IMG/VR virus record: IMGVR_UViG_2711768067_000021
Span: 1-7,438 of that record
Strand: one strand, 5' to 3'
Source of the DNA: a virus
Taxonomy: Duplodnaviria > Heunggongvirae > Uroviricota > Caudoviricetes
DNA length: 7,438 nucleotides
Positions 1 to 7,438 of the stretch are shown here, one piece after another. Position 1 is the first letter of the stretch. Each line of letters starts with the position of its first letter. Under the pieces are notes generated by a model. That model was not told the origin of the DNA. It made no database searches and saw nothing but the letters and a program-made list of their open reading frames with translations. A program made the position numbers and the translations under genes.

Positions 1-1284
1 TTACTTCTTCGCCTCTGCAACCACTTTACTACCCACGCCGCGGTTATTGTATTCCCACATGCGGTTGTAGTTAGTGTCATTCAGATTGCGCTGTATTTCG
101 TCGTTATCATCTACGCTGCCGGTATTACCCGCAAACGGACGATTAGAGATCACCGCATCGGCCCACGGTTTAGCCGTGTTAAAACCTTCGTTGATGGCGC
201 TATCACGGATCACCACCTGACCGTTGGTATTGGCATCAACATCCAGCGAGCGGCCCAGTTGCGCCACACCATCACCGAAAGCATTGAAACGGCTGTTTAC
301 GGCGAGGAAACCGTAGTAAATGTTGTACAGCGTAGCCGGTGCAAACACATACGCTTCTTGCTGAGTACGTGAGTTCACCACGCGGAATTCGGTGTTATCG
401 AACACCACTGCGCCGCGACCAGAAACGATATCCACATCCCCTTCAATGTAGCTGTTGGTCACCAGCGTACGCGGCTGACGGTTGGTTTCCAGACGGTTCT
501 GCACACCGCTGTTGGTGACAAAGAAGGTGTTCTGACGACCGAGAATGTTAACGTTGTTAATCTGTACCTGGTCACCATCAGTACGCAGTGCCACCGCCGG
601 ATGGTTACCTGCATCTACGCTATCGCCCAGCGTGTTTTCGATGGTCAGATTTTGCAGTTGCAGGCCATTGTTTTGTGACCAGAAGACCGCAGAGCAGAGA
701 ACACCGATACTGTCGCTGCGTTTGCTCTGGCAGCTATCGTACATATACCACGCTGGTTTACCTGGCATATATTTGCCGCGCGGGTTGACGTCGTGACGCC
801 AGTCGGCAGGGCTCATGCCACCATCAAGGGAAAGCCCAATCTTCACATCAATCGGTTTTTCACCTGTACCGTACAGAGTAATTCCACCCGGAGCGGCAGG
901 GACATATACCGTTCCCTGATACTCACCAGGCATCACGGCAATATACTGGCGCTTGTTGGTACGCTTGATAATTGCCGCATCTACCGCCGCCTGAATCGTG
1001 GTATGCGTTACACCTTGAGTGCCCGCCGGGCCGACAACAAAGTCAGGTTGCGCAGGCAGGGTAATCGGGGAAGGATTCCACGCTGCAGCACCTGGTGTCA
1101 GGGATGCAAAATAGTGTTGAGCATCGAAATTCTGCGCTTCTTTTGCCGACAGAATCGGGCGAGAAGAGGTACCAGGCGCGGTTTGATCAGAAGGACGTTG
1201 ATCGGGCGGGGTTGAGCTACAGGCGGTCAGCGTCACGCCAAAAGCCAATGCCAGCGCCAGACGGGAAACTGAAAATGTGTTCAC
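1..1284 (-). CDS. ybhC: Host outer-membrane lipoprotein YbhC (pectinesterase-family / putative acyl-CoA thioesterase), complete 427 aa
   Basis: Full ORF on the minus strand; window position 1 is the first base of its stop codon. Start is GTG at 1282-1284 with GGAG 7 nt upstream. N-terminus MNTFSVSRLALALAFGVTLTAC has a lipobox (LTAC) typical of lipoproteins. Protein recognised from memory as E. coli YbhC, the gene on the gal side of attλ. Confidence 0.9.
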   Translation of the reverse strand: MNTFSVSRLALALAFGVTLTACSSTPPDQRPSDQTAPGTSSRPILSAKEAQNFDAQHYFASLTPGAAAWNPSPITLPAQPDFVVGPAGTQGVTHTTIQAAVDAAIIKRTNKRQYIAVMPGEYQGTVYVPAAPGGITLYGTGEKPIDVKIGLSLDGGMSPADWRHDVNPRGKYMPGKPAWYMYDSCQSKRSDSIGVLCSAVFWSQNNGLQLQNLTIENTLGDSVDAGNHPAVALRTDGDQVQINNVNILGRQNTFFVTNSGVQNRLETNRQPRTLVTNSYIEGDVDIVSGRGAVVFDNTEFRVVNSRTQQEAYVFAPATLYNIYYGFLAVNSRFNAFGDGVAQLGRSLDVDANTNGQVVIRDSAINEGFNTAKPWADAVISNRPFAGNTGSVDDNDEIQRNLNDTNYNRMWEYNNRGVGSKVVAEAKK

Positions 1285-1328
1285 AGGTTGCTCCGGGCTA
1301 TGAAATAGAAAAATGAATCCGTTGAAGC

Positions 1329-1349
1329 CTGCTTTTTTATACTAAGTTG
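1329..1349. other. attL: attL core (B-O-P'): ctgcttt / TTTATAC / taagttg; 15-bp common core GCTTTTTTATACTAA at 1331-1345
   Basis: Exact match to the lambda att common core as I recall it. The left half-site CTGCTTT is the attB type (attP has CAGCTTT) and the right half-site TAAGTTG is the attP C' type (attB has TAACTTG), so this is a hybrid BOP' site, i.e. attL of an integrated prophage. Confidence 0.9.
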
Positions 1350-1370
1350 GCATTATAAAAAAGCATTGCT

Positions 1371-1383
1371 TATCAATTTGTTG
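1371..1383. promoter_or_regulatory. IHF binding site H' in the P' arm (TATCAATTTGTTG)
   Basis: Matches the IHF consensus WATCAANNNNTTR; position relative to the core fits the lambda H' site. Confidence 0.7.
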
Positions 1384-1390
1384 CAACGAA

Positions 1391-1422
1391 CAGGTCACTA
1401 TCAGTCAAAATAAAATCATTAT
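1391..1422. promoter_or_regulatory. Int arm-type binding sites P'1, P'2, P'3 (caggtcactat / cagtcaaaat / aaaatcattat)
   Basis: Three tandem repeats resembling the arm-type consensus (C/A)AGTCACTAT, lying between the core and the int stop codon; the third overlaps the int stop (1419-1421). Confidence 0.75.
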
Positions 1423-2489
1423 TTGATTTCAATTTTGTCCCACTCCCTGCCTCTGTCATCACGATACTGTGATGCCATGGTGTCCGACTTATGCCCGAGA
1501 AGATGTTGAGCAAACTTATCGCTTATCTGCTTCTCATAGAGTCTTGCAGACAAACTGCGCAACTCGTGAAAGGTAGGCGGATCCCCTTCGAAGGAAAGAC
1601 CTGATGCTTTTCGTGCGCGCATAAAATACCTTGATACTGTGCCGGATGAAAGCGGTTCGCGACGAGTAGATGCAATTATGGTTTCTCCGCCAAGAATCTC
1701 TTTGCATTTATCAAGTGTTTCCTTCATTGATATTCCGAGAGCATCAACATGCAATACTGTTGGGATGGCAATTTTTACGCCTGTTTTGCTTTGCTCGACA
1801 TAAAGATATCCATCTACGATATCAGACCACTTCATTTCGCATAAATCACCAACTCGTTGCCCGGTAACAACAGCCAGTTCCATTGCAAGTCTGAGCCAAC
1901 ATGGTGATGATTCTGCTGCTTGATAAATTTTCAGGTATTCGTCAGCCGTAAGTCTTGATCTCCTTACCTCTGATTTTGCTGCGCGAGTGGCAGCGACAGG
2001 GTTTGTTGTTATATGGCCTTCAGCTATTGCCTCTCGGAATGCATCGCTCAGTGTTGATCTGATTAACTTGGCTGACGCCGCCTTGCCCTCGTCTATGTAT
2101 CCATTGAGCATTGCCGCAATTTCTTTTGTGGTGATGTCTTCAAGTGGAGCATCAGGCAGACCCCTCCTTATTGCTTTAATTTTGCTCATGTAATTTATGA
2201 GTGTCTTCTGCTTGATTCCTCTGCTGGCCAGGATTTTTTCGTAGCGATCAAGCCATGAATGTAACGTAACGGAATTATCACTGTTGATTCTCGCTGTCAG
2301 AGGCTTGTGTTTGTGTCCTGAAAATAACTCAATGTTGGCCTGTATAGCTTCAGTGATTGCGATTCGCCTGTCTCTGCCTAATCCAAACTCTTTACCCGTC
2401 CTTGGGTCCCTGTAGCAGTAATATCCATTGTTTCTTATATAAAGGTTAGGGGGTAAATCCCGGCGCTCATGACTTCGCCTTCTTCCCAT
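1419..2489 (-). CDS. int: Lambda-type integrase Int (tyrosine recombinase), 356 aa
   Basis: 356-aa ORF beginning MGRRRSHERRDLPPNLYIRNNGYYCYRDPRTGKEFGLGRD, recognised as lambda Int. Stop lies 74 bp from the att core as in lambda; 23-nt overlap with xis. Confidence 0.97.
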   Translation of the reverse strand: MGRRRSHERRDLPPNLYIRNNGYYCYRDPRTGKEFGLGRDRRIAITEAIQANIELFSGHKHKPLTARINSDNSVTLHSWLDRYEKILASRGIKQKTLINYMSKIKAIRRGLPDAPLEDITTKEIAAMLNGYIDEGKAASAKLIRSTLSDAFREAIAEGHITTNPVAATRAAKSEVRRSRLTADEYLKIYQAAESSPCWLRLAMELAVVTGQRVGDLCEMKWSDIVDGYLYVEQSKTGVKIAIPTVLHVDALGISMKETLDKCKEILGGETIIASTRREPLSSGTVSRYFMRARKASGLSFEGDPPTFHELRSLSARLYEKQISDKFAQHLLGHKSDTMASQYRDDRGREWDKIEIK

Positions 2490-2685
2490 TTCTGATCCTC
2501 TTCAAAAGGCTACCTGTTACTGGTCGATTTAAGTCAACCTTTACCGCTGATTCGTGGAACAGATACTCTCTTCCATCCTTAACTGGAGGAGGGAATATCC
2601 TGCACTCGCGTACCCATCGACGAACTGTTTCAAGGCTTCTTGGGCGTCGCTGGCGTGCGTTCCACTCCTGAAGTGTCAAGTACAT
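2467..2685 (-). CDS. xis: Excisionase Xis, 72 aa
   Basis: 72-aa ORF MYLTLQEWNARQRRPRSLETVRRWV..., recognised as lambda Xis. GGAG 8 nt upstream of ATG; 3' end overlaps the int start. Confidence 0.95.
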   Translation of the reverse strand: MYLTLQEWNARQRRPRSLETVRRWVRECRIFPPPVKDGREYLFHESAVKVDLNRPVTGSLLKRIRNGKKAKS

Positions 2686-2697
2686 CGCAAAGTCTCC

Positions 2698-2711
2698 GCA
2701 ATTACACGCAA
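2698..2711 (-). promoter_or_regulatory. Putative cII activator site of the pI promoter (TTGC-N6-TTGC; minus-strand TTGCGTGTAATTGC)
   Basis: Direct-repeat TTGC tetramers spaced by 6 nt, just upstream of the xis ATG, so a transcript initiating about 30 bp downstream would start inside xis and encode Int but not Xis, as described for lambda pI. The -10 element was not pinned down. Confidence 0.5.
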
Positions 2712-2712
2712 G

Positions 2713-2732
2713 AAAAAACCGCCATCAGGCGG
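2713..2732 (-). terminator. Possible weak intrinsic terminator or attenuator hairpin (CCGCC-UGAU-GGCGG followed by UUUUUU on the minus-strand RNA)
   Basis: 5-bp all-GC stem with 4-nt loop followed by six U in the transcribed (minus) direction; the loop contains the stop codon of the 55-aa ORF. Short stem, so low confidence. Confidence 0.3.
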
Positions 2733-2892
2733 CTTGGTGTTCTTTCAGTTCTTCAATTCGAATATTGGTTACGTCTGCATGTGCTATCTGCGCCCACAGC
2801 ATCCAGTGGTCATAGCAGTCGCTGATGTTCTCGGCTTCGATAACTCTGTTGAATGGTTCTCCATTCCATTCACCTGTAACTCGGAAGTGCAT
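2725..2892 (-). CDS. Small hypothetical protein, 55 aa (lambda orf55 position); not in the supplied ORF track
   Basis: Hand-translated from the minus strand: ATG at 2890-2892, TGA at 2725-2727, giving MHFRVTGEWNGEPFNRVIEAENISDCYDHWMLWAQIAHADVTNIRIEELKEHQAA. GGAG 7 nt upstream of ATG. Position between xis and ea8.5 matches the small ORF annotated there in lambda (recollection). Confidence 0.7.
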   Translation of the reverse strand: MHFRVTGEWNGEPFNRVIEAENISDCYDHWMLWAQIAHADVTNIRIEELKEHQAA

Positions 2893-2903
2893 TTATCATC
2901 TCC

Positions 2904-2930
2904 ATAAAACAAAACTCGCCGTAGCGAGTT
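2904..2930 (-). terminator. Putative intrinsic terminator (AACUCGC-UACG-GCGAGUU followed by UUGUUUUAU on the minus-strand RNA)
   Basis: Perfect 7-bp inverted repeat with 4-nt loop and a U-rich tail in the leftward transcript, between the ea8.5 stop and the 55-aa ORF RBS. Confidence 0.45.
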
Positions 2931-2980
2931 CAGATAAAAGAAATCCCCGCGAGTGCGAGGATAGTTACTTGTTCATATTA

Positions 2981-3262
2981 TTAATCGTCAATGTATTTTG
3001 AGCATTGTGGGCAATCATCGATCCCACAATACGATTCATATGCATCCTTTATTGCGTCGCGGGCTTCAGTAAGAGTATTGAATAAGTTGCAGCTATTATC
3101 TTTTTGATATAGGTAAGTTCCTAATTTATAAGCAGAAGAAGCATCATTTCCGCTGTCTAAAATTACATCGTTATGGATTCTGCACCTTGCAAGAACTCCT
3201 GATCCCATAAGGGTCTGCATAGCCCATTGCTCTTGATCTTCACACAAATCATGAATGCTCAT
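2981..3262 (-). CDS. ea8.5: Ea8.5-like protein, 93 aa (probable Cys-rich zinc-binding C-terminus)
   Basis: ORF in track is 99 aa (2981-3280). The second Met (MSIHDLCEDQ..., start 3262) has a strong RBS (AGAGAGGTG) and gives 93 aa, the length I recall for lambda Ea8.5; spacing from xis also matches lambda. The C-terminus contains CGIDDCPQC. Confidence 0.8.
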   Translation of the reverse strand: MSIHDLCEDQEQWAMQTLMGSGVLARCRIHNDVILDSGNDASSAYKLGTYLYQKDNSCNLFNTLTEARDAIKDAYESYCGIDDCPQCSKYIDD

Positions 3263-3361
3263 TTCAACACCTCTCTTCACGTTTCACACACGTTAAGATT
3301 AACAGTGTTTTTACATGCTTTGGAAGATTTATTTTATAAAAACTCTTTTAATACAAATAGA

Positions 3362-3381
3362 TATAATAGTTCACTATTATA
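3362..3381. repeat. 20-bp palindrome TATAATAG-TTCA-CTATTATA overlapping the stop codon of the 367-aa gene
   Basis: 8-bp perfect inverted arms around a 4-bp centre, seen directly in the sequence; sits in the AT-rich spacer where similarity to lambda appears to end. Confidence 0.5.
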
Positions 3382-4480
3382 GCTCCTTTAATCGAGGCGG
3401 TTCTGGTAGAGGCATCCAGTGGGTTACACCGCCAATTGGCTCATCGTCGTCGTACTCCAATGCGGCTATATAGAACCCGTCACGACGAGAATAAGAAATC
3501 CCGGACATTACAATGCCATCCGAAACAACAATAATGTCACCCGTTTCTTTCGGCATTCGCTCACTACAGCTTATCCAACCATCCGGAGTCACCGGAAGCG
3601 AGAACGGCAGCACATCTCTGTGAACAAGTTTTTGCTGTGACAGGTTATCCAGAACTTTCTGTACTGCTGCATCACCGAATACACCAAGCGCATCTGCCAT
3701 AACTCCTACAACCTGATAAGCCTCAGCGCATACCGTGGATAAACCATCCGGAATTACCGGAGAGTTGCCTGCCAATCTACGCAAAACAGCCTTAACAGCC
3801 TCAATACGGTCATCATCGTAACTTTCCGCCGTATCTATGCGGTCAAGCATGATGATGGCGTTATCAATATCAGGATTGCCGGTCCACTCATTACCGCGAT
3901 TGGATTCGGCAGCCTGGTTGCCGCGTACTGGTTGATTCTCGGCTTTACCCTGTCTGTCGTCGCTGCATGAATGCCCTTCCAGCCAGACCAGTGCTTGTCG
4001 CATGAAATACGCAATATGCTTGCCGTGGTAATCGTCTTCATCGATGTGAAAAGCGATACTGCGGATATATTCAATTGCGTTTTCAATGGCCTCCGGCGTT
4101 ATCGGTGCTGACATATTTTGATTTTGGAGTGCCAAGACGCGGCTGGCATCCTCTACGCCTTTAACTGCATCTGCGCAGTAGTTATAGCGATTGCATTCCA
4201 CTAACTTCTGCTTGAGATTTTCAATTGCTTGTGCGACATCAGCCTGCAATTCCGGAACTGGCGGAGTGGCATATAACGGCACCCACTTTGGTGCTTTATC
4301 CCCGACCGAACGCTGATACCAGTCACCCGGTTTGTATTCATAAAACTCACCAACAGGCTCTGCTTCCAGCGATGCCAGCGCAATTTCATAAGCACGGCGC
4401 TCAATATTGTCTCGCACGTCCAGACTGCCTATGCGCTCTTTGATTTCTTTAATCAGTTCTTTGTCGGTTAAAGTGGTCAT
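3377..4480 (-). CDS. Hypothetical acidic prophage protein, 367 aa, C-terminal DUF551-like domain; cargo gene absent from canonical lambda
   Basis: Long ORF with GAGG 8 nt upstream of ATG. C-terminus ...DGWISCSERMPKETGDIIVVSDG...GGVTHWMPLPEPP resembles the DUF551 signature (recognised from memory, not searched). N-terminal ~300 aa is acidic with no family I can name. GC content looks similar to the neighbouring phage genes. Confidence 0.8.
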   Translation of the reverse strand: MTTLTDKELIKEIKERIGSLDVRDNIERRAYEIALASLEAEPVGEFYEYKPGDWYQRSVGDKAPKWVPLYATPPVPELQADVAQAIENLKQKLVECNRYNYCADAVKGVEDASRVLALQNQNMSAPITPEAIENAIEYIRSIAFHIDEDDYHGKHIAYFMRQALVWLEGHSCSDDRQGKAENQPVRGNQAAESNRGNEWTGNPDIDNAIIMLDRIDTAESYDDDRIEAVKAVLRRLAGNSPVIPDGLSTVCAEAYQVVGVMADALGVFGDAAVQKVLDNLSQQKLVHRDVLPFSLPVTPDGWISCSERMPKETGDIIVVSDGIVMSGISYSRRDGFYIAALEYDDDEPIGGVTHWMPLPEPPRLKEL

Positions 4481-4490
4481 AAATTATGCC

Positions 4491-5024
4491 TCAGTTGTAT
4501 CCGATTGGATTAACCGCAACAATAACGCCATCCGCGAACAAATCTTTAATGAGGTGTTCGCTCGGCTCGCCTTTTTCGTACTCTTCAATAAGGTAAGTGT
4601 CTCCATCCTCATTGATATAAACTGGAAGAATGGAACCGTTGATGAAGTAGGTTCCGTTGTTATCGAGGATTTTTGCCTCGGCGATTTGTTTTTTGGTAAA
4701 ACGATCTTCTTTTTTCAAAGTTGCCATATCTGTTTCCTTATGTGGGTTAATTTTATTGTGTAGCTTCCTGAATGGGGTCCACACTATATCGATATACAGT
4801 TCAACTAACGGTTCAAATACTTTCCCCATTAGAACAGTCACTAATATTGAGGCTATTGGTATCAGCAACACGAAAAACAGAATGATAAACAGCAATTCTA
4901 TTGCTCTACTCTTTCGCGGATATTCTTTTCTGAATAAAGTGGGCATTTCCTCCCCATTAAATGCGTCAATGATTTCTCCAGTGTTTTGCGCTGCACCTGA
5001 ATTATCTTTAAATCCTTCTTTCAT
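4491..5024 (-). CDS. Hypothetical single-pass membrane protein, 177 aa, in an AT-rich segment (moron-like cargo gene)
   Basis: ORF with GAGGAA about 12 nt upstream of ATG. Hydrophobic stretch LLFIILFFVLLIPIASILVTVLMG preceded by basic residues (RKEYPRKSR), suggesting N-in topology. Its stop codon sits 10 nt from the start of the downstream 367-aa gene and overlaps that gene's RBS. Hand-counted GC is about 38% in two 60-nt samples versus about 48% in a flanking sample. An internal ATG (4725-4727) with a strong AAGGAA RBS could yield a 78-aa soluble C-terminal product. Confidence 0.7.
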   Translation of the reverse strand: MKEGFKDNSGAAQNTGEIIDAFNGEEMPTLFRKEYPRKSRAIELLFIILFFVLLIPIASILVTVLMGKVFEPLVELYIDIVWTPFRKLHNKINPHKETDMATLKKEDRFTKKQIAEAKILDNNGTYFINGSILPVYINEDGDTYLIEEYEKGEPSEHLIKDLFADGVIVAVNPIGYN

Positions 5025-5030
5025 CGTTTG

Positions 5031-5720
5031 CTATTCTTCCTCACACCCAAGATATGAAAGAGATGTAATTGCTTTTGCACGGAAACCACCAACCTTGCTA
5101 AGTGCGCTTTTAAGTGCGTCAAGGTCAGATTGTGATTTGATCATGAAAGTTAACCGCGCAATTCCAGACATAGAGTCAGAACCATTCACTGCGTTGTAGT
5201 GATATATGTATCGGGTGACTGATTGAGTCACGCCCTCCTGCTGGTGGTTTATATTGGCGTCCTGTCTTGTGTTGGCCTGCTCCAACTCTTCGATACGTTC
5301 AGCCATCGCAGCACACTCTTCAAAGTTGCTTAATGCTTTTCGCTCCGATTCAGCGCATTGTTTTTCCAGTTCTGCTATGCGCTTACCTCCATCCGCGATT
5401 ACTCCCTCGTAATGCTCGCGCTGCTCGTTGAGTTTTGATTTTGCCGACTCCAGTTGTTTTGTTAGTTCCGCAATACGGCAAACATCGTTGATACGCGTTT
5501 CCTCTAATGCGTTGATCTCATCCAGTAGTGCCAAAGCAACCTTTGGATTAAAGGCAGCAATAAATTCAGCGTTGTTTTTCAGAACGTGTTGCGCAATGGC
5601 CTGACTACTTAGTCGGACCTCATAACCACGTGCGCCACGGTGTGGTTTATATGAGTCCCAGTCTCCCCACGTTGCTTTCACTGCCGCCTCACGCAGTGCC
5701 TGATAGTTAATTTCGCTCAC
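5031..5720 (-). CDS. ea22: Ea22-like protein, 229 aa (conserved N-terminus and coiled-coil centre, divergent C-terminus)
   Basis: GTG start at 5718-5720 with AGAGAGG 6 nt upstream; the start overlaps the stop of the 73-aa gene (GTGA). N-terminal MSEINYQALREAA... and the central ...AKSKLNEQREHYEGVIADGGKRIAELE... resemble what I recall of lambda Ea22 and the ead/Ea22-like family; lambda Ea22 is 182 aa by recollection, so the C-terminal part differs. Confidence 0.75.
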   Translation of the reverse strand: MSEINYQALREAAVKATWGDWDSYKPHRGARGYEVRLSSQAIAQHVLKNNAEFIAAFNPKVALALLDEINALEETRINDVCRIAELTKQLESAKSKLNEQREHYEGVIADGGKRIAELEKQCAESERKALSNFEECAAMAERIEELEQANTRQDANINHQQEGVTQSVTRYIYHYNAVNGSDSMSGIARLTFMIKSQSDLDALKSALSKVGGFRAKAITSLSYLGCEEE

Positions 5721-5938
5721 TTCGAACCTCTCTGTTTACTGATAAGCTCCAGATCCTCCTGGCAACTTGCACAAGTCCGACAACCCTGAACGACCAGGCG
5801 TCTTCGTTCATCTATGGGATCGCCACACTCACAACAATGAGTGGCGGATATAGTCTGGTAGTTCAGACGACGCATTTTTATTGCTGTATTGCGCTGTAAT
5901 TCTTCAATTTCTGATGCTGAATCAATGATGTCCGCCAT
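5717..5938 (-). CDS. TraR/DksA-family C4 zinc-finger protein, 73 aa (lambda Orf73-like RNA polymerase-binding regulator)
   Basis: Contains CCEC...14 aa...CRTCASC, a CxxC-spacer-CxxC zinc-finger pattern typical of TraR/DksA-family proteins; the 73-aa length matches the lambda TraR homologue Orf73 as I recall it. Confidence 0.8.
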   Translation of the reverse strand: MADIIDSASEIEELQRNTAIKMRRLNYQTISATHCCECGDPIDERRRLVVQGCRTCASCQEDLELISKQRGSK

Positions 5939-5987
5939 CTTTCATTAATCCCTGAATTGTTGGTTAATACGCTTGAGGGTGAATGCG

Positions 5988-6014
5988 AATAATAAAAAAG
6001 GAGCCTGTAGCTCC
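5988..6014 (-). terminator. Putative Rho-independent terminator (GGAGC-UACAG-GCUCC followed by UUUUUUAUUAUU on the minus-strand RNA)
   Basis: 5-bp GC-rich stem with a 5-nt loop and a U-tract immediately downstream (leftward) of the small ORF ending at 6037 and upstream of the 73-aa gene. Within the pL operon, so it would be read through under N antitermination. Confidence 0.55.
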
Positions 6015-6036
6015 CTGATGATTTTGCTTTTCATGT

Positions 6037-6252
6037 TCACCGTTCCTTAAAGACGCCGTTTAACATACCGATTGCCAGACTTAAGTGAGTCGGTGTGAAT
6101 CCCATCAGCGTTACCGTTTCGCGGTGCTTCTTCAGTACGCTACGGCAAATGTCATCGACGTTTTTATCCGGAAACTGCTGTCTGGCTTTTTTGATTTCAT
6201 AATTAGCCTGACGGGCAATACTGCGAAGGGCGTTTTCTTGCTGAGGTGTCAT
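6037..6252 (-). CDS. Hypothetical small protein, about 71 aa (start uncertain; track ORF extends to 6318 giving 93 aa)
   Basis: The protein-like part begins MTPQQENALRSIARQANYEIKKARQQFPDKNVDD...; the 22 residues upstream (MHFSGSGLHILCAYACRHGTCS) look non-protein-like and the 6318 ATG lacks an RBS. The RBS for 6252 is also weak (GGGA about 11 nt upstream), so the start call is tentative. Confidence 0.55.
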   Translation of the reverse strand: MTPQQENALRSIARQANYEIKKARQQFPDKNVDDICRSVLKKHRETVTLMGFTPTHLSLAIGMLNGVFKER

Positions 6253-6328
6253 TGAACAAGTCCCATGTCGGCAAGCATAAGCACACAGAATATGAAGCCC
6301 GCTGCCAGAAAAATGCATTCAGTGGTTG

Positions 6329-6520
6329 TCATACCTGGTCTCTCTCATCTGCTTCTGCTTTCGCCACCATCATTTCCAGCTTTTGTGAAAGGGATGTGGC
6401 TAACGTATGAAATTCTTCGTCTGTTTCTACTGGTATTGGCACAAACCTGACTCCAATTTGAGCAAGGCTATGTGCCATCTCAATGCTCGTTCTTAACTCA
6501 ACAGGAGATGCTTTGTGCAT
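6329..6520 (-). CDS. orf63: Small early protein, 63 aa (lambda orf63 position)
   Basis: 63-aa ORF with GAGGGG RBS; overlaps the upstream orf60a by 28 nt, the same arrangement and length I recall for lambda orf63. Confidence 0.75.
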   Translation of the reverse strand: MHKASPVELRTSIEMAHSLAQIGVRFVPIPVETDEEFHTLATSLSQKLEMMVAKAEADERDQV

Positions 6521-6675
6521 ACAGCCCCTCGTTTATTATTTATCTCCTCAGCCAGCCGCTGGGCTTTCAGTGGATTTTGGATAACAGAAAGGCCGGGAAA
6601 TACCCAGCCTCGCTTTGTAACGGAGTAGACGAAAGTGATCGCACCTACCCGGATATTATCGTGAGGATGCTTCAT
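6493..6675 (-). CDS. orf60a: Small early protein, 60 aa (lambda orf60a position)
   Basis: Track ORF is 62 aa from 6681. The second ATG (6673-6675) overlaps the exo stop codon (ATGA) and sits 8 nt downstream of GGGGAG, giving 60 aa as in lambda orf60a. Confidence 0.7.
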
Positions 6676-7352
6676 CGCCATTGCTCCCCAAATACAAAAC
6701 CAATTTCAGCCAGTGCCTCGTCCATTTTTTCGATGAACTCCGGCACCATCTCGTCAAAACTCGCCATGTACTTTTCATCCTGCTCAATCACGACATAATG
6801 CAGGCCTTCACGCTTCATCCGCGGGTCATAGTTAGCAAAGTACCAGGCATCTTTTCGTGTCACCCACATGCTGTACTGCACCTGGGCCATGTAAGCCGAC
6901 TTTATGGCCTCGAAACCACCGAGCCGGAATTTCATGAAATCCCGGGAGGTAAACGGGCATTTCAGTTCAAGGCCGTTGCCGTCACTGCATAAACCATCGG
7001 GAGAGCAGGCGGTGCGCATACTTTCGTCGCGATAGATGATCGGGGATTCATTAACATTCACGCCGGAAGTGAACTCAAAGAGGGCTCTGGCGTCGTTCTC
7101 GTACTGTTTTCCCCAGGCCAGCGCCTTAGCGTTAACTTCCGGAGCCACACCGGTGCAAACCTCGGCAAGCAGGGTGTGGAAGTAGGACATTTTCATGTCA
7201 GGCCATTTCTTTCCGGAGCGGGGTTTTGCTATCACATTGTGAACTTCTGAAGCGGTGATGACGCCGAGCCGTAATTTGTGCCACGCATCATCCCCCTGTT
7301 CGACAGCTCTCACGTCGATCCCGGTACGCTGCAGGATAATGTCCGGTGTCAT
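6672..7352 (-). CDS. exo: Lambda exonuclease (Red-alpha, 5'-3' dsDNA exonuclease), 226 aa
   Basis: 226-aa [43 protein letters not shown]..., recognised as lambda Exo; start codon overlaps the bet stop (ATGA). Confidence 0.97.
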
Positions 7353-7438
7353 GCAGCCACCTTCTGTTCAGAGGCTTTCTGTTTCAGGAATCCAAGAGCT
7401 TTCACTGCTTCGGCCTGTGTCAGTTCTGACGATGCGCG
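7349..7438 (-). CDS. bet: Bet (Red-beta single-strand annealing protein), C-terminal 29 codons only; gene continues beyond the window
   Basis: Hand translation of the minus strand from the window end gives [29 protein letters not shown] then TGA, consistent with the lambda Bet C-terminus; the stop overlaps the exo start. Confidence 0.85.

Follow-up and report, generated by a model that had tools for sequence, protein, structure and literature searches.

Gene content of the window and its boundaries with lambda

The 7,438-nucleotide (nt) stretch analyzed here (the window; positions 1 to 7,438 of IMG/VR record IMGVR_UViG_2711768067_000021) forms the left arm, at attL and beside the host gene ybhC, of a lambda-like prophage, and its DNA is 100% identical to contig CYFS01000020.1 of the E. 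coli assembly GCA_001286245.1. From attL, the genes run int, xis, orf55, an ea8.5 homologue, three further minus-strand genes, the conserved exo-xis genes, and exo. The three minus-strand genes encode an Eaa-family protein of 367 amino acids (aa) that ends in a DUF551 domain, a 177-aa protein containing a DUF4014 module, and a 229-aa Ea22-like protein. In a blastn comparison with lambda (NC_001416), lambda-like DNA spans positions 1331-2967 (98.7%) and 5672-7435 (96.6%), and similarity breaks at 2967/2968 and 5671/5672 around a block that brings a net gain of 1718 bp (Table 1). This interval is very likely an ordinary mosaic allele in the variable part of the lambdoid exo-xis (early-left, or "ea") region.

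A preliminary description of this DNA had proposed that positions 3263-5720 hold a cargo module replacing a short lambda interval. Its measurements were exact: 3410 bp separate the ea8.5 ATG (3262) from the exo stop (6672), against 1693 bp in lambda (29655 to 31348), and the open reading frames (ORFs) of 367, 177, and 229 aa lie where it had placed them, all on the minus strand, the last comparing with a lambda Ea22 of 182 aa. The interval truly differs from lambda, but the block delimited by blastn is wider (2968-5671) and takes in the ea8.5 allele and nearly all of ea22. Similarly, everything from attL to ea8.5 had been described as having lambda-like lengths; ea8.5 does keep the lambda length, but it is a different allele without DNA similarity to lambda. 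The right-hand lambda match begins at 5672, which limits lambda similarity in ea22 to roughly its first 16 codons, and the sole lambda-like stretch inside the block is 82 bp long with 85% identity (5363-5444), within the ea22 coiled-coil region. The early-left region had been called a known variable locus, and the interval does lie in the exo-xis region's variable part. Genes located downstream of ea22 have been reported as a set that varies in number and kind and is expressed early from pL (PMC8614690).

Table 1. Features of the window and of the block that departs from lambda
Feature	Position	Strand	Basis or remark
Block without lambda-level DNA similarity	2968..5671	minus	2704 bp replacing lambda 29361-30346 (986 bp); blastn vs NC_001416
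Eaa-family protein, 367 aa	3377..4480	minus	Identical to deposited NCBI "Eaa prophage protein"
DUF551 domain, residues 301-362, small, beta-rich, C-terminal	3395..3580	minus	Pfam PF04448
Linker 1, CCGGATGGT, encodes ...PVIPDG	3743..3751	minus	Homology to phage D6 stops here (D6 match 3742-4945)
Linker 2, CCGGATGGT, encodes ...PVTPDGW	3578..3586	minus	Matches of the MINF_7C plasmid and of D6-like contig L015 stop at 3575
ORF of 177 aa: N-terminal extension (1-26), DUF4014 membrane module (27-98), SH3-like beta-barrel (111-177)	4491..5024	minus	Pfam PF13198
DUF4014 module, one hydrophobic helix (about residues 41-67) with a basic cluster ahead	4734..4943	minus	Pfam, AlphaFold2, hydropathy/charge
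Predicted C-terminal SH3-like beta-barrel, residues 111-177, about 65 aa	4494..4694	minus	Separate gene in other phages
Fusion joint AAGGAAACAGATATG; in unfused relatives AAGGAAAGCTGAtATG (TGA stop, then ATG of the next gene)	4725..4739	minus	DNA alignment, including Stx2 phage II
Ea22-like protein, 229 aa	5031..5720	minus	Pfam Ead_Ea22; lambda-like extreme N terminus, coiled coil, non-lambda C-terminal domain
ea8.5 homologue, 93 aa, non-lambda allele	2981..3262	minus	Pfam Lambda_ea8_5 (PF20735), E 1.1e-15
AT-rich spacer, 96 bp, between the Eaa gene and ea8.5	3281..3376	minus	GC about 0.39; no promoter-like site on the minus strand
orf73, TraR/DksA-type zinc-finger protein, conserved exo-xis block (context)	5717..5938	minus	Pfam zf-dskA_traR
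attL core	1331..1345	.	Lambda homology begins; blastn match starts at lambda 27724, the annotated att core
Host ybhC, pectinesterase-like gene	1-1284	minus	Pfam Pectinesterase match; left of attL

The same gene order recurs in lambdoid phages and phage-plasmids

Stx2 phage II/933W-like phages, P22-like phages (BIS08P22), and D6 and D6-like phage-plasmids also show the order Ea22-like, DUF4014, small gene, Eaa/DUF551, and lambda-like prophages with different integrases and attachment sites carry the block Ea22-like/177 aa/367 aa/Ea8.5 without change. In Stx2 phage II (ORFs c48 to c43), the genes exo, orf60a, orf63, orf61, orf73, Ea22-like, DUF4014 (72 aa), a small ORF, and DUF551 follow one another before xis/int, i.e., the same families in the same operon as in the window. 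However, DUF4014 is unfused in that phage, whereas in the window it has been joined in frame with the small gene that follows; the DUF551 protein has 207 aa, compared to 367 aa and extra modules for the Eaa protein of the window; and Stx/933W-like phages lack ea8.5 at the position where the window block ends in an ea8.5 allele. The DUF4014 homologue of Stx2 phage II is ORF c45 (PHROG 1832). For this homologue, we found the names "released from the phage upon host infection" and "putative sugar acetyl transferase inhibitor" (ArgO145) to be unsupported, and they may be propagated misannotations. No paper mentioning the name DUF4014 was found in the literature, and searches for pmgU and Eaa likewise gave nothing relevant.

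The phage-plasmid D6 shares 93% DNA identity with positions 3742-4945, a stretch that takes in the DUF4014 fusion together with Eaa codons 1-246 (orf103 and orf104 in D6). D6 is a P1-like phage-plasmid of another replicon type, in which orf103 starts at M27 and the C terminus of the orf104 product differs after the PDG linker. The label "pmgU-like, putative morphogenetic" carried by orf104 had no support in these results and was not adopted. Plasmids and contigs of the D6 type (about 90 kb) are 98 to 99% identical to the window over 3575-5546, including the same 10-nt junction between the two genes. In D6-like plasmids, the accessory region around the shared block of about 2 kb includes phd/doc, humD, hot, and a Tad2-like (PF11195) gene as well.

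In P22-like phages, the EaA gene directly follows a 72-aa DUF4014 gene. P22-type EaA and E. coli YfdS share with the window protein the C-terminal DUF551 domain and an Eaa-type N-terminal module ("MTT.T...AL.SLEAEPV"), but the EaA proteins of P22-like phages have negligible pairwise similarity to the Eaa protein outside short motifs, and YfdS lies in another gene cluster, yfdQRST (PMC4776307).

Laboratory lambda is better described as a short variant than this phage as a carrier of inserted cargo. The idea of cargo that replaces a canonical interval gives way to a gene order that is standard in the three groups above, and the two genes are not novel: the 367-aa protein is identical to a deposited one and has relatives in more than 7600 clusters at 90% identity, most of them belonging to prophages of E. 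coli and Salmonella or to phage-plasmid contigs of about 90 kb, and the 177-aa protein falls in a cluster of 160 sequences. Public records already contain these proteins, their families, and their order, and earlier work has described how variable the region is.

The 177-aa and Eaa genes are frequent neighbors but not an obligate pair

In close relatives (lambdoid prophages and D6-like phage-plasmids), the 177-aa gene is always followed by the same 10 nt and then by an Eaa-type gene, whose product ranges from 191 to 367 aa. On a wider scale, an Eaa/DUF551-type ORF was found within 2 kb downstream in 43 of 59 nonidentical IMG/VR loci and was absent there in the other 16, and Eaa pieces occur in 419 phage records compared to 132 for DUF4014. 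The two genes are thus frequent neighbors and not an obligate pair, and the earlier suggestion that they act together is not supported, given the 16 loci without such a neighbor and the varying length of the partner. Translational coupling had also been put forward. At the junction, the TGA of the 177-aa gene (4493-4491) is separated by 10 nt from the ATG at 4480, and a GAGG motif overlaps the stop codon, a spacing compatible with coupling but no proof of it; the genes do not overlap. The orf73 stop codon and the GTG with which the Ea22-like gene starts also overlap, as GTGA (5717-5720, minus strand), an arrangement compatible with translational coupling within the conserved exo-xis block.

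The 177-aa protein is a DUF4014-barrel fusion formed by stop loss

The N-terminal half of the 177-aa protein matches DUF4014 (PF13198) with 70.7 bits against a cutoff of 23.2, residues 28-97 covering profile positions 2-71 of 72, and phrog_1832 with an E value of 2e-30. Membrane localization is predicted from residues 41-67, which have a grand average of hydropathy of 2.7 and are preceded by a basic cluster. In the AlphaFold2 model (mean predicted local distance difference test [pLDDT] of 76.7), residues 40-92, including the hydrophobic segment, form one long helix and the C-terminal barrel exceeds a pLDDT of 90. According to a whole-library search, each half occurs elsewhere as a stand-alone protein of 64 to 75 aa, and a search of 1.84 billion representative proteins returned only 34 relatives.

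The origin of the fusion can be read from the DNA alignment, in which the junction of unfused relatives is AAGGAAAGCTGAtATGGCAAC and that of the window is AAGGAAA-CAGAtATGGCAAC. A 1-nt deletion removed the TGA stop codon of DUF4014 and brought the downstream ATG in frame, i.e., a fusion by stop loss. The resulting ORF has three candidate starts: M1, located 6 nt past the Ea22-like stop; M27, where the D6 homologue and the Pfam model begin; and M100, which is preceded by its own AAGGAA. Since the ribosome-binding site and ATG of M100 are kept at the fusion joint, the barrel may also be made alone. In some other phages, the DUF4014 module or the C-terminal barrel is joined to the Ead/Ea22 N-terminal and coiled-coil region. 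Adjacent genes in this region appear to fuse repeatedly.

A comparison based on the predicted model suggests a possible Gp54-like fold for the small C-terminal domain. Gp54 of phage Bas11, the trigger of the CapRelSJ46 immunity protein (Protein Data Bank [PDB] 9AXB), shares only 18% identity with the barrel. In the window, the barrel is fused to a predicted membrane anchor. A profile built from 21 relatives of the C-terminal domain did not retrieve 9AXB at E values up to 10, so no sequence homology to Gp54 was found, and when the whole 177-aa model was compared with the PDB by Foldseek, the only matches were weak ones of SH3, Tudor, and KOW-like type (E of 0.25 or higher). Weak matches to GITR ligand, xylanase, and FGF (E of 0.1 to 1), returned by solved-structure searches with the 367-aa and 177-aa proteins and with the C-domain and DUF551 profiles, were rejected as chance. 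On the opposite strand, an antisense ORF of 180 aa (4657-5199, plus strand) faces the AT-rich DUF4014 gene; this ORF and another plus-strand ORF at 4407-4763 had no family match and were treated as spurious.

The Eaa protein is a modular protein with a variable C-terminal domain

The Eaa protein is acidic (pI of 4.6, net charge of about -25) and can be divided by residue into modules 1-42, a helical hairpin ending in ...SLEAEPV; 43-75; 76-240, the core; 241-300; and 301-362, corresponding to DUF551. PHROG families match the protein module by module, all of them families of unknown function (phrog_60, E 6.9e-54), and the C-terminal module matches DUF551 (PF04448) with 52.7 bits against a cutoff of 22, over profile positions 1-67 of 68. 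The modules are connected via conserved ...SLEAEPV and ...P(V/I)(I/T)PDGW motifs, and relatives keep some modules and swap others, alternative C termini among them. Between DUF551 alleles, the flanks PDGWISCSERMP and THWMPLPEPP (also given as THWMPLPEPPQEV) are nearly invariant. The DUF551 center of 35 to 45 aa is highly variable in sequence and length between alleles, which gives it a cassette-like look. DUF551 has been described as a portable domain of unknown function (PMC10834534, PMC4776307).

AlphaFold2, run with 66 relatives, gave a mean pLDDT of 41.7 for the 367-aa protein, and the model is reliable only at residues 6-38 and 301-360; DUF551 is predicted to contain four strands, with a pLDDT of about 65 to 78. 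No PDB relative of this protein was found by sequence or by fold, Foldseek returning nothing below an E value of 0.9 for a low-confidence model that makes the fold search uninterpretable.

Module boundaries coincide with recombination joints and both genes are under purifying selection

Compared with D6, D6-like plasmids, and other prophages, homology breaks at positions 5546, 4945, about 4354, 3742, 3575, and 2967. The breakpoint near 4354 lies just past ...EAEPV, and those at 3742 and 3575 lie just past the PDG(W) linkers. As homology ends precisely at the linker motifs, these motifs behave as recombination joints. The TCCGG-N5-CCGGA inverted repeats seen in both linkers were discounted because two CCGG codon junctions, Pro-Gly or Pro-Val, give rise to them.

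Purifying selection acts on both genes: relative to D6, the ratio of nonsynonymous to synonymous substitution rates (dN/dS) is 0.16 for the fusion gene (dS of 0.38) and 0.25 for Eaa codons 1-246 (dS of 0.10). The almost fourfold gap in dS between the adjacent genes suggests that they have separate histories, with a recombination joint between them despite the contiguous match to D6.

These values bear on whether the genes might be decaying, functionless remnants carried along by recombination. Relatives do include truncated Eaa-like pieces of 55 aa and frameshifted or pseudogene copies in D6-like plasmids, and the 177-aa ORF itself arose from an indel that destroyed a stop codon. Nonetheless, the ORFs are intact and have good ribosome-binding sites, the dN/dS values point to purifying selection, the fused allele is conserved in the 160 sequences of its cluster, found on at least 133 contigs, and the C-terminal domain of the 177-aa protein is predicted by AlphaFold2 to fold with high confidence. 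We therefore consider it very unlikely that the genes are remnants.

The block belongs to the pL operon and shows no sign of a lysogen-protecting defense system

The genes of the block are co-oriented with the pL operon and closely spaced. A simple consensus scan of positions 2800-6000 revealed no sigma-70-like promoter site on the coding strand; the two promoter-like sites that it returned are both on the noncoding strand, fewer than the 6.3 expected from shuffled sequences. Two terminator-like sites with 5-bp stems are present on the coding strand inside the Eaa ORF, and the total of 6 is within chance (3.2 +/- 2.0 expected). No Rfam RNA family was found within the window.

The preliminary description favored an undescribed defense, exclusion, or counter-defense function. 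In one version of this idea, a prophage defense or superinfection exclusion system would guard the lysogen, with the membrane protein blocking incoming phage DNA. The 177-aa protein is indeed predicted to be membrane anchored, like many exclusion proteins, and the locus is variable. Membrane exclusion proteins include P22 SieA, HK97 gp15, and T4 Imm. However, neither the 367-aa nor the 177-aa protein, nor Ea8.5, had a match in PADLOC-DB v2 at E values up to 1, and no enzymatic or nucleic acid-binding domain was found in the 367-aa or 177-aa protein by Pfam or PHROG, NCBIfam giving no significant match, so no ATPase, nuclease, or other effector domain supports such a role. A lysogen promoter independent of the lytic operons, a trait of superinfection exclusion genes, was not found in the minus-strand scan of 2800-6000, and the genes lie within the repressor-controlled, N-dependent pL operon. 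The pair is also not obligate. A defense that protects the lysogen is therefore very unlikely. The related statement that the two extra proteins are without characterized function agrees with our searches, which matched them only to the uncharacterized families Eaa/DUF551 and DUF4014.

Host modulation and counter-defense as possible roles

Two more specific roles deserve consideration, each of them possible though doubtful on its own. The first is a counter-defense module, in which one or both proteins would, at an early stage of infection, bind and neutralize an anti-phage immunity protein of the host, with the shuffling of modules reflecting an arms race. The genes lie in the early pL operon beside recombination genes. 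According to a 2026 preprint, the anti-OLD inhibitor Oad2, which is related to P22 EaE, is encoded in the same recombination-adjacent region, which was called an anti-immunity hotspot (10.64898/2026.07.10.737580). The strongly acidic character of Eaa, the conserved DUF551 flanks around a highly variable center, the swapping of C-terminal modules among relatives, and the occurrence of the same block in a D6-like phage-plasmid accessory region that also encodes a Tad2-like (PF11195) protein are all consistent with this role. However, a BLASTP comparison of all four block proteins with a P22-like EaE gave no match at E values up to 10, and there was no similarity to P22-type EaF either. In addition, no relative of solved structure was identified by sequence and no known anti-defense fold was recovered, and the variability may simply reflect relaxed constraint and recombination.

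The second role, modulation of the lysis-lysogeny decision or of host physiology, would resemble that of the neighboring genes orf60a, orf63, orf61, orf73, and ea22. The exo-xis region as a whole modulates lytic versus lysogenic development as well as host gene expression and physiology (PMC10789677). The genes of the block share the operon and timing of their exo-xis neighbors, and the homologous arrangement in Stx phages holds DUF4014 and DUF551 genes. Moreover, one Ea22 variant bears a DUF551 C-terminal domain, and the DUF551 protein YfdS has been linked to oxidative-stress tolerance and to effects on replication initiation (PMC10834534, PMC4776307). The published phenotypes, however, belong to the conserved five-gene block or to deletions of the whole region and not to these genes, and the links through YfdS are indirect. 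We regard modulation and counter-defense as about equally plausible.

A more elaborate proposal would combine several of these elements: the acidic Eaa protein, bearing a variable DUF551 head, and the membrane-anchored fusion of DUF4014 and barrel would together form an early-expressed counter-defense or exclusion module of an undescribed kind, the heads tracking diverse host immunity proteins and the Gp54-like barrel acting as ligand or decoy for a host sensor. We consider this proposal improbable.

Flanking alleles of the block

Both genes that flank the pair belong to known families and depart from lambda. The Ea8.5 protein matches PF20735 with 58.4 bits (cutoff of 27) and is 100% identical across all 93 residues to the nuclear magnetic resonance structure PDB 2M7A; two prophage Ea8.5 homologues have been solved, and the other, PDB 2M7B, matches with an E value of only 0.05. 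The 93 aa are counted from the ATG at 3262, which is preceded by an AGAGAGG ribosome-binding site, and the ORF reaches back to a GTG at 3280. The Ea22-like protein matches PF13935 over residues 2-119 with 77.1 bits (cutoff of 27), and phrog_29890 covers residues 170-228. Matches of this protein to JetC, LmuB, and SMC proteins (PADLOC JetC and LmuB, E of 8e-4 to 0.013) were rejected, as they reflect coiled-coil composition.

A probable mosaic accessory allele of the exo-xis region

Taken as an ordinary mosaic allele, the block would have been assembled by recombination from modules circulating among lambda-like, Stx/933W-like, and P22-like phages and D6/P1-like phage-plasmids. It would encode nonessential accessory proteins transcribed within the N-antiterminated pL operon. 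Their synthesis would therefore fall early in infection or follow induction, and would not take place in the repressed lysogen. In the 177-aa product, the DUF4014 helix would anchor in the inner membrane and carry a small SH3-like, protein-binding barrel, possibly produced separately as well from the internal start M100. The 367-aa Eaa protein would be a soluble, strongly acidic scaffold of exchangeable modules, with DUF551, through its conserved flanks and variable center, as the target-binding head. Both proteins would most likely bind host or competitor proteins and thereby adjust host physiology, the lysis-lysogeny outcome, or host immunity early in infection, and they would act as independent modules that are often adjacent instead of as a two-component system.

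Several points weigh against this explanation. The constant 10-nt junction in close relatives fits a shared function as well as a shared recombination history. A simple consensus scan may miss a weak or non-sigma-70 promoter, so the genes could be expressed in the lysogen. We infer the membrane topology of the 177-aa protein from the positive-inside rule only, and the poor AlphaFold2 model of the 367-aa protein leaves three quarters of it structurally uninterpreted. Finally, the mechanism is drawn from architecture and context.

In its present form, the finding carries little weight, as it represents one more mosaic allele made from catalogued families. What is added here are the exact boundaries with lambda, a module map with its joints, the stop-loss fusion, and a possible Gp54-like fold for the small domain. 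For the design of constructs, the map of modules and the joint of the fusion could be useful. The DUF551/Eaa and DUF4014 genes are very widespread in temperate phages of E. coli and Salmonella, Stx phages included, and are uncharacterized. Assigning a function to either family would give an annotation to thousands of genes in prophages.

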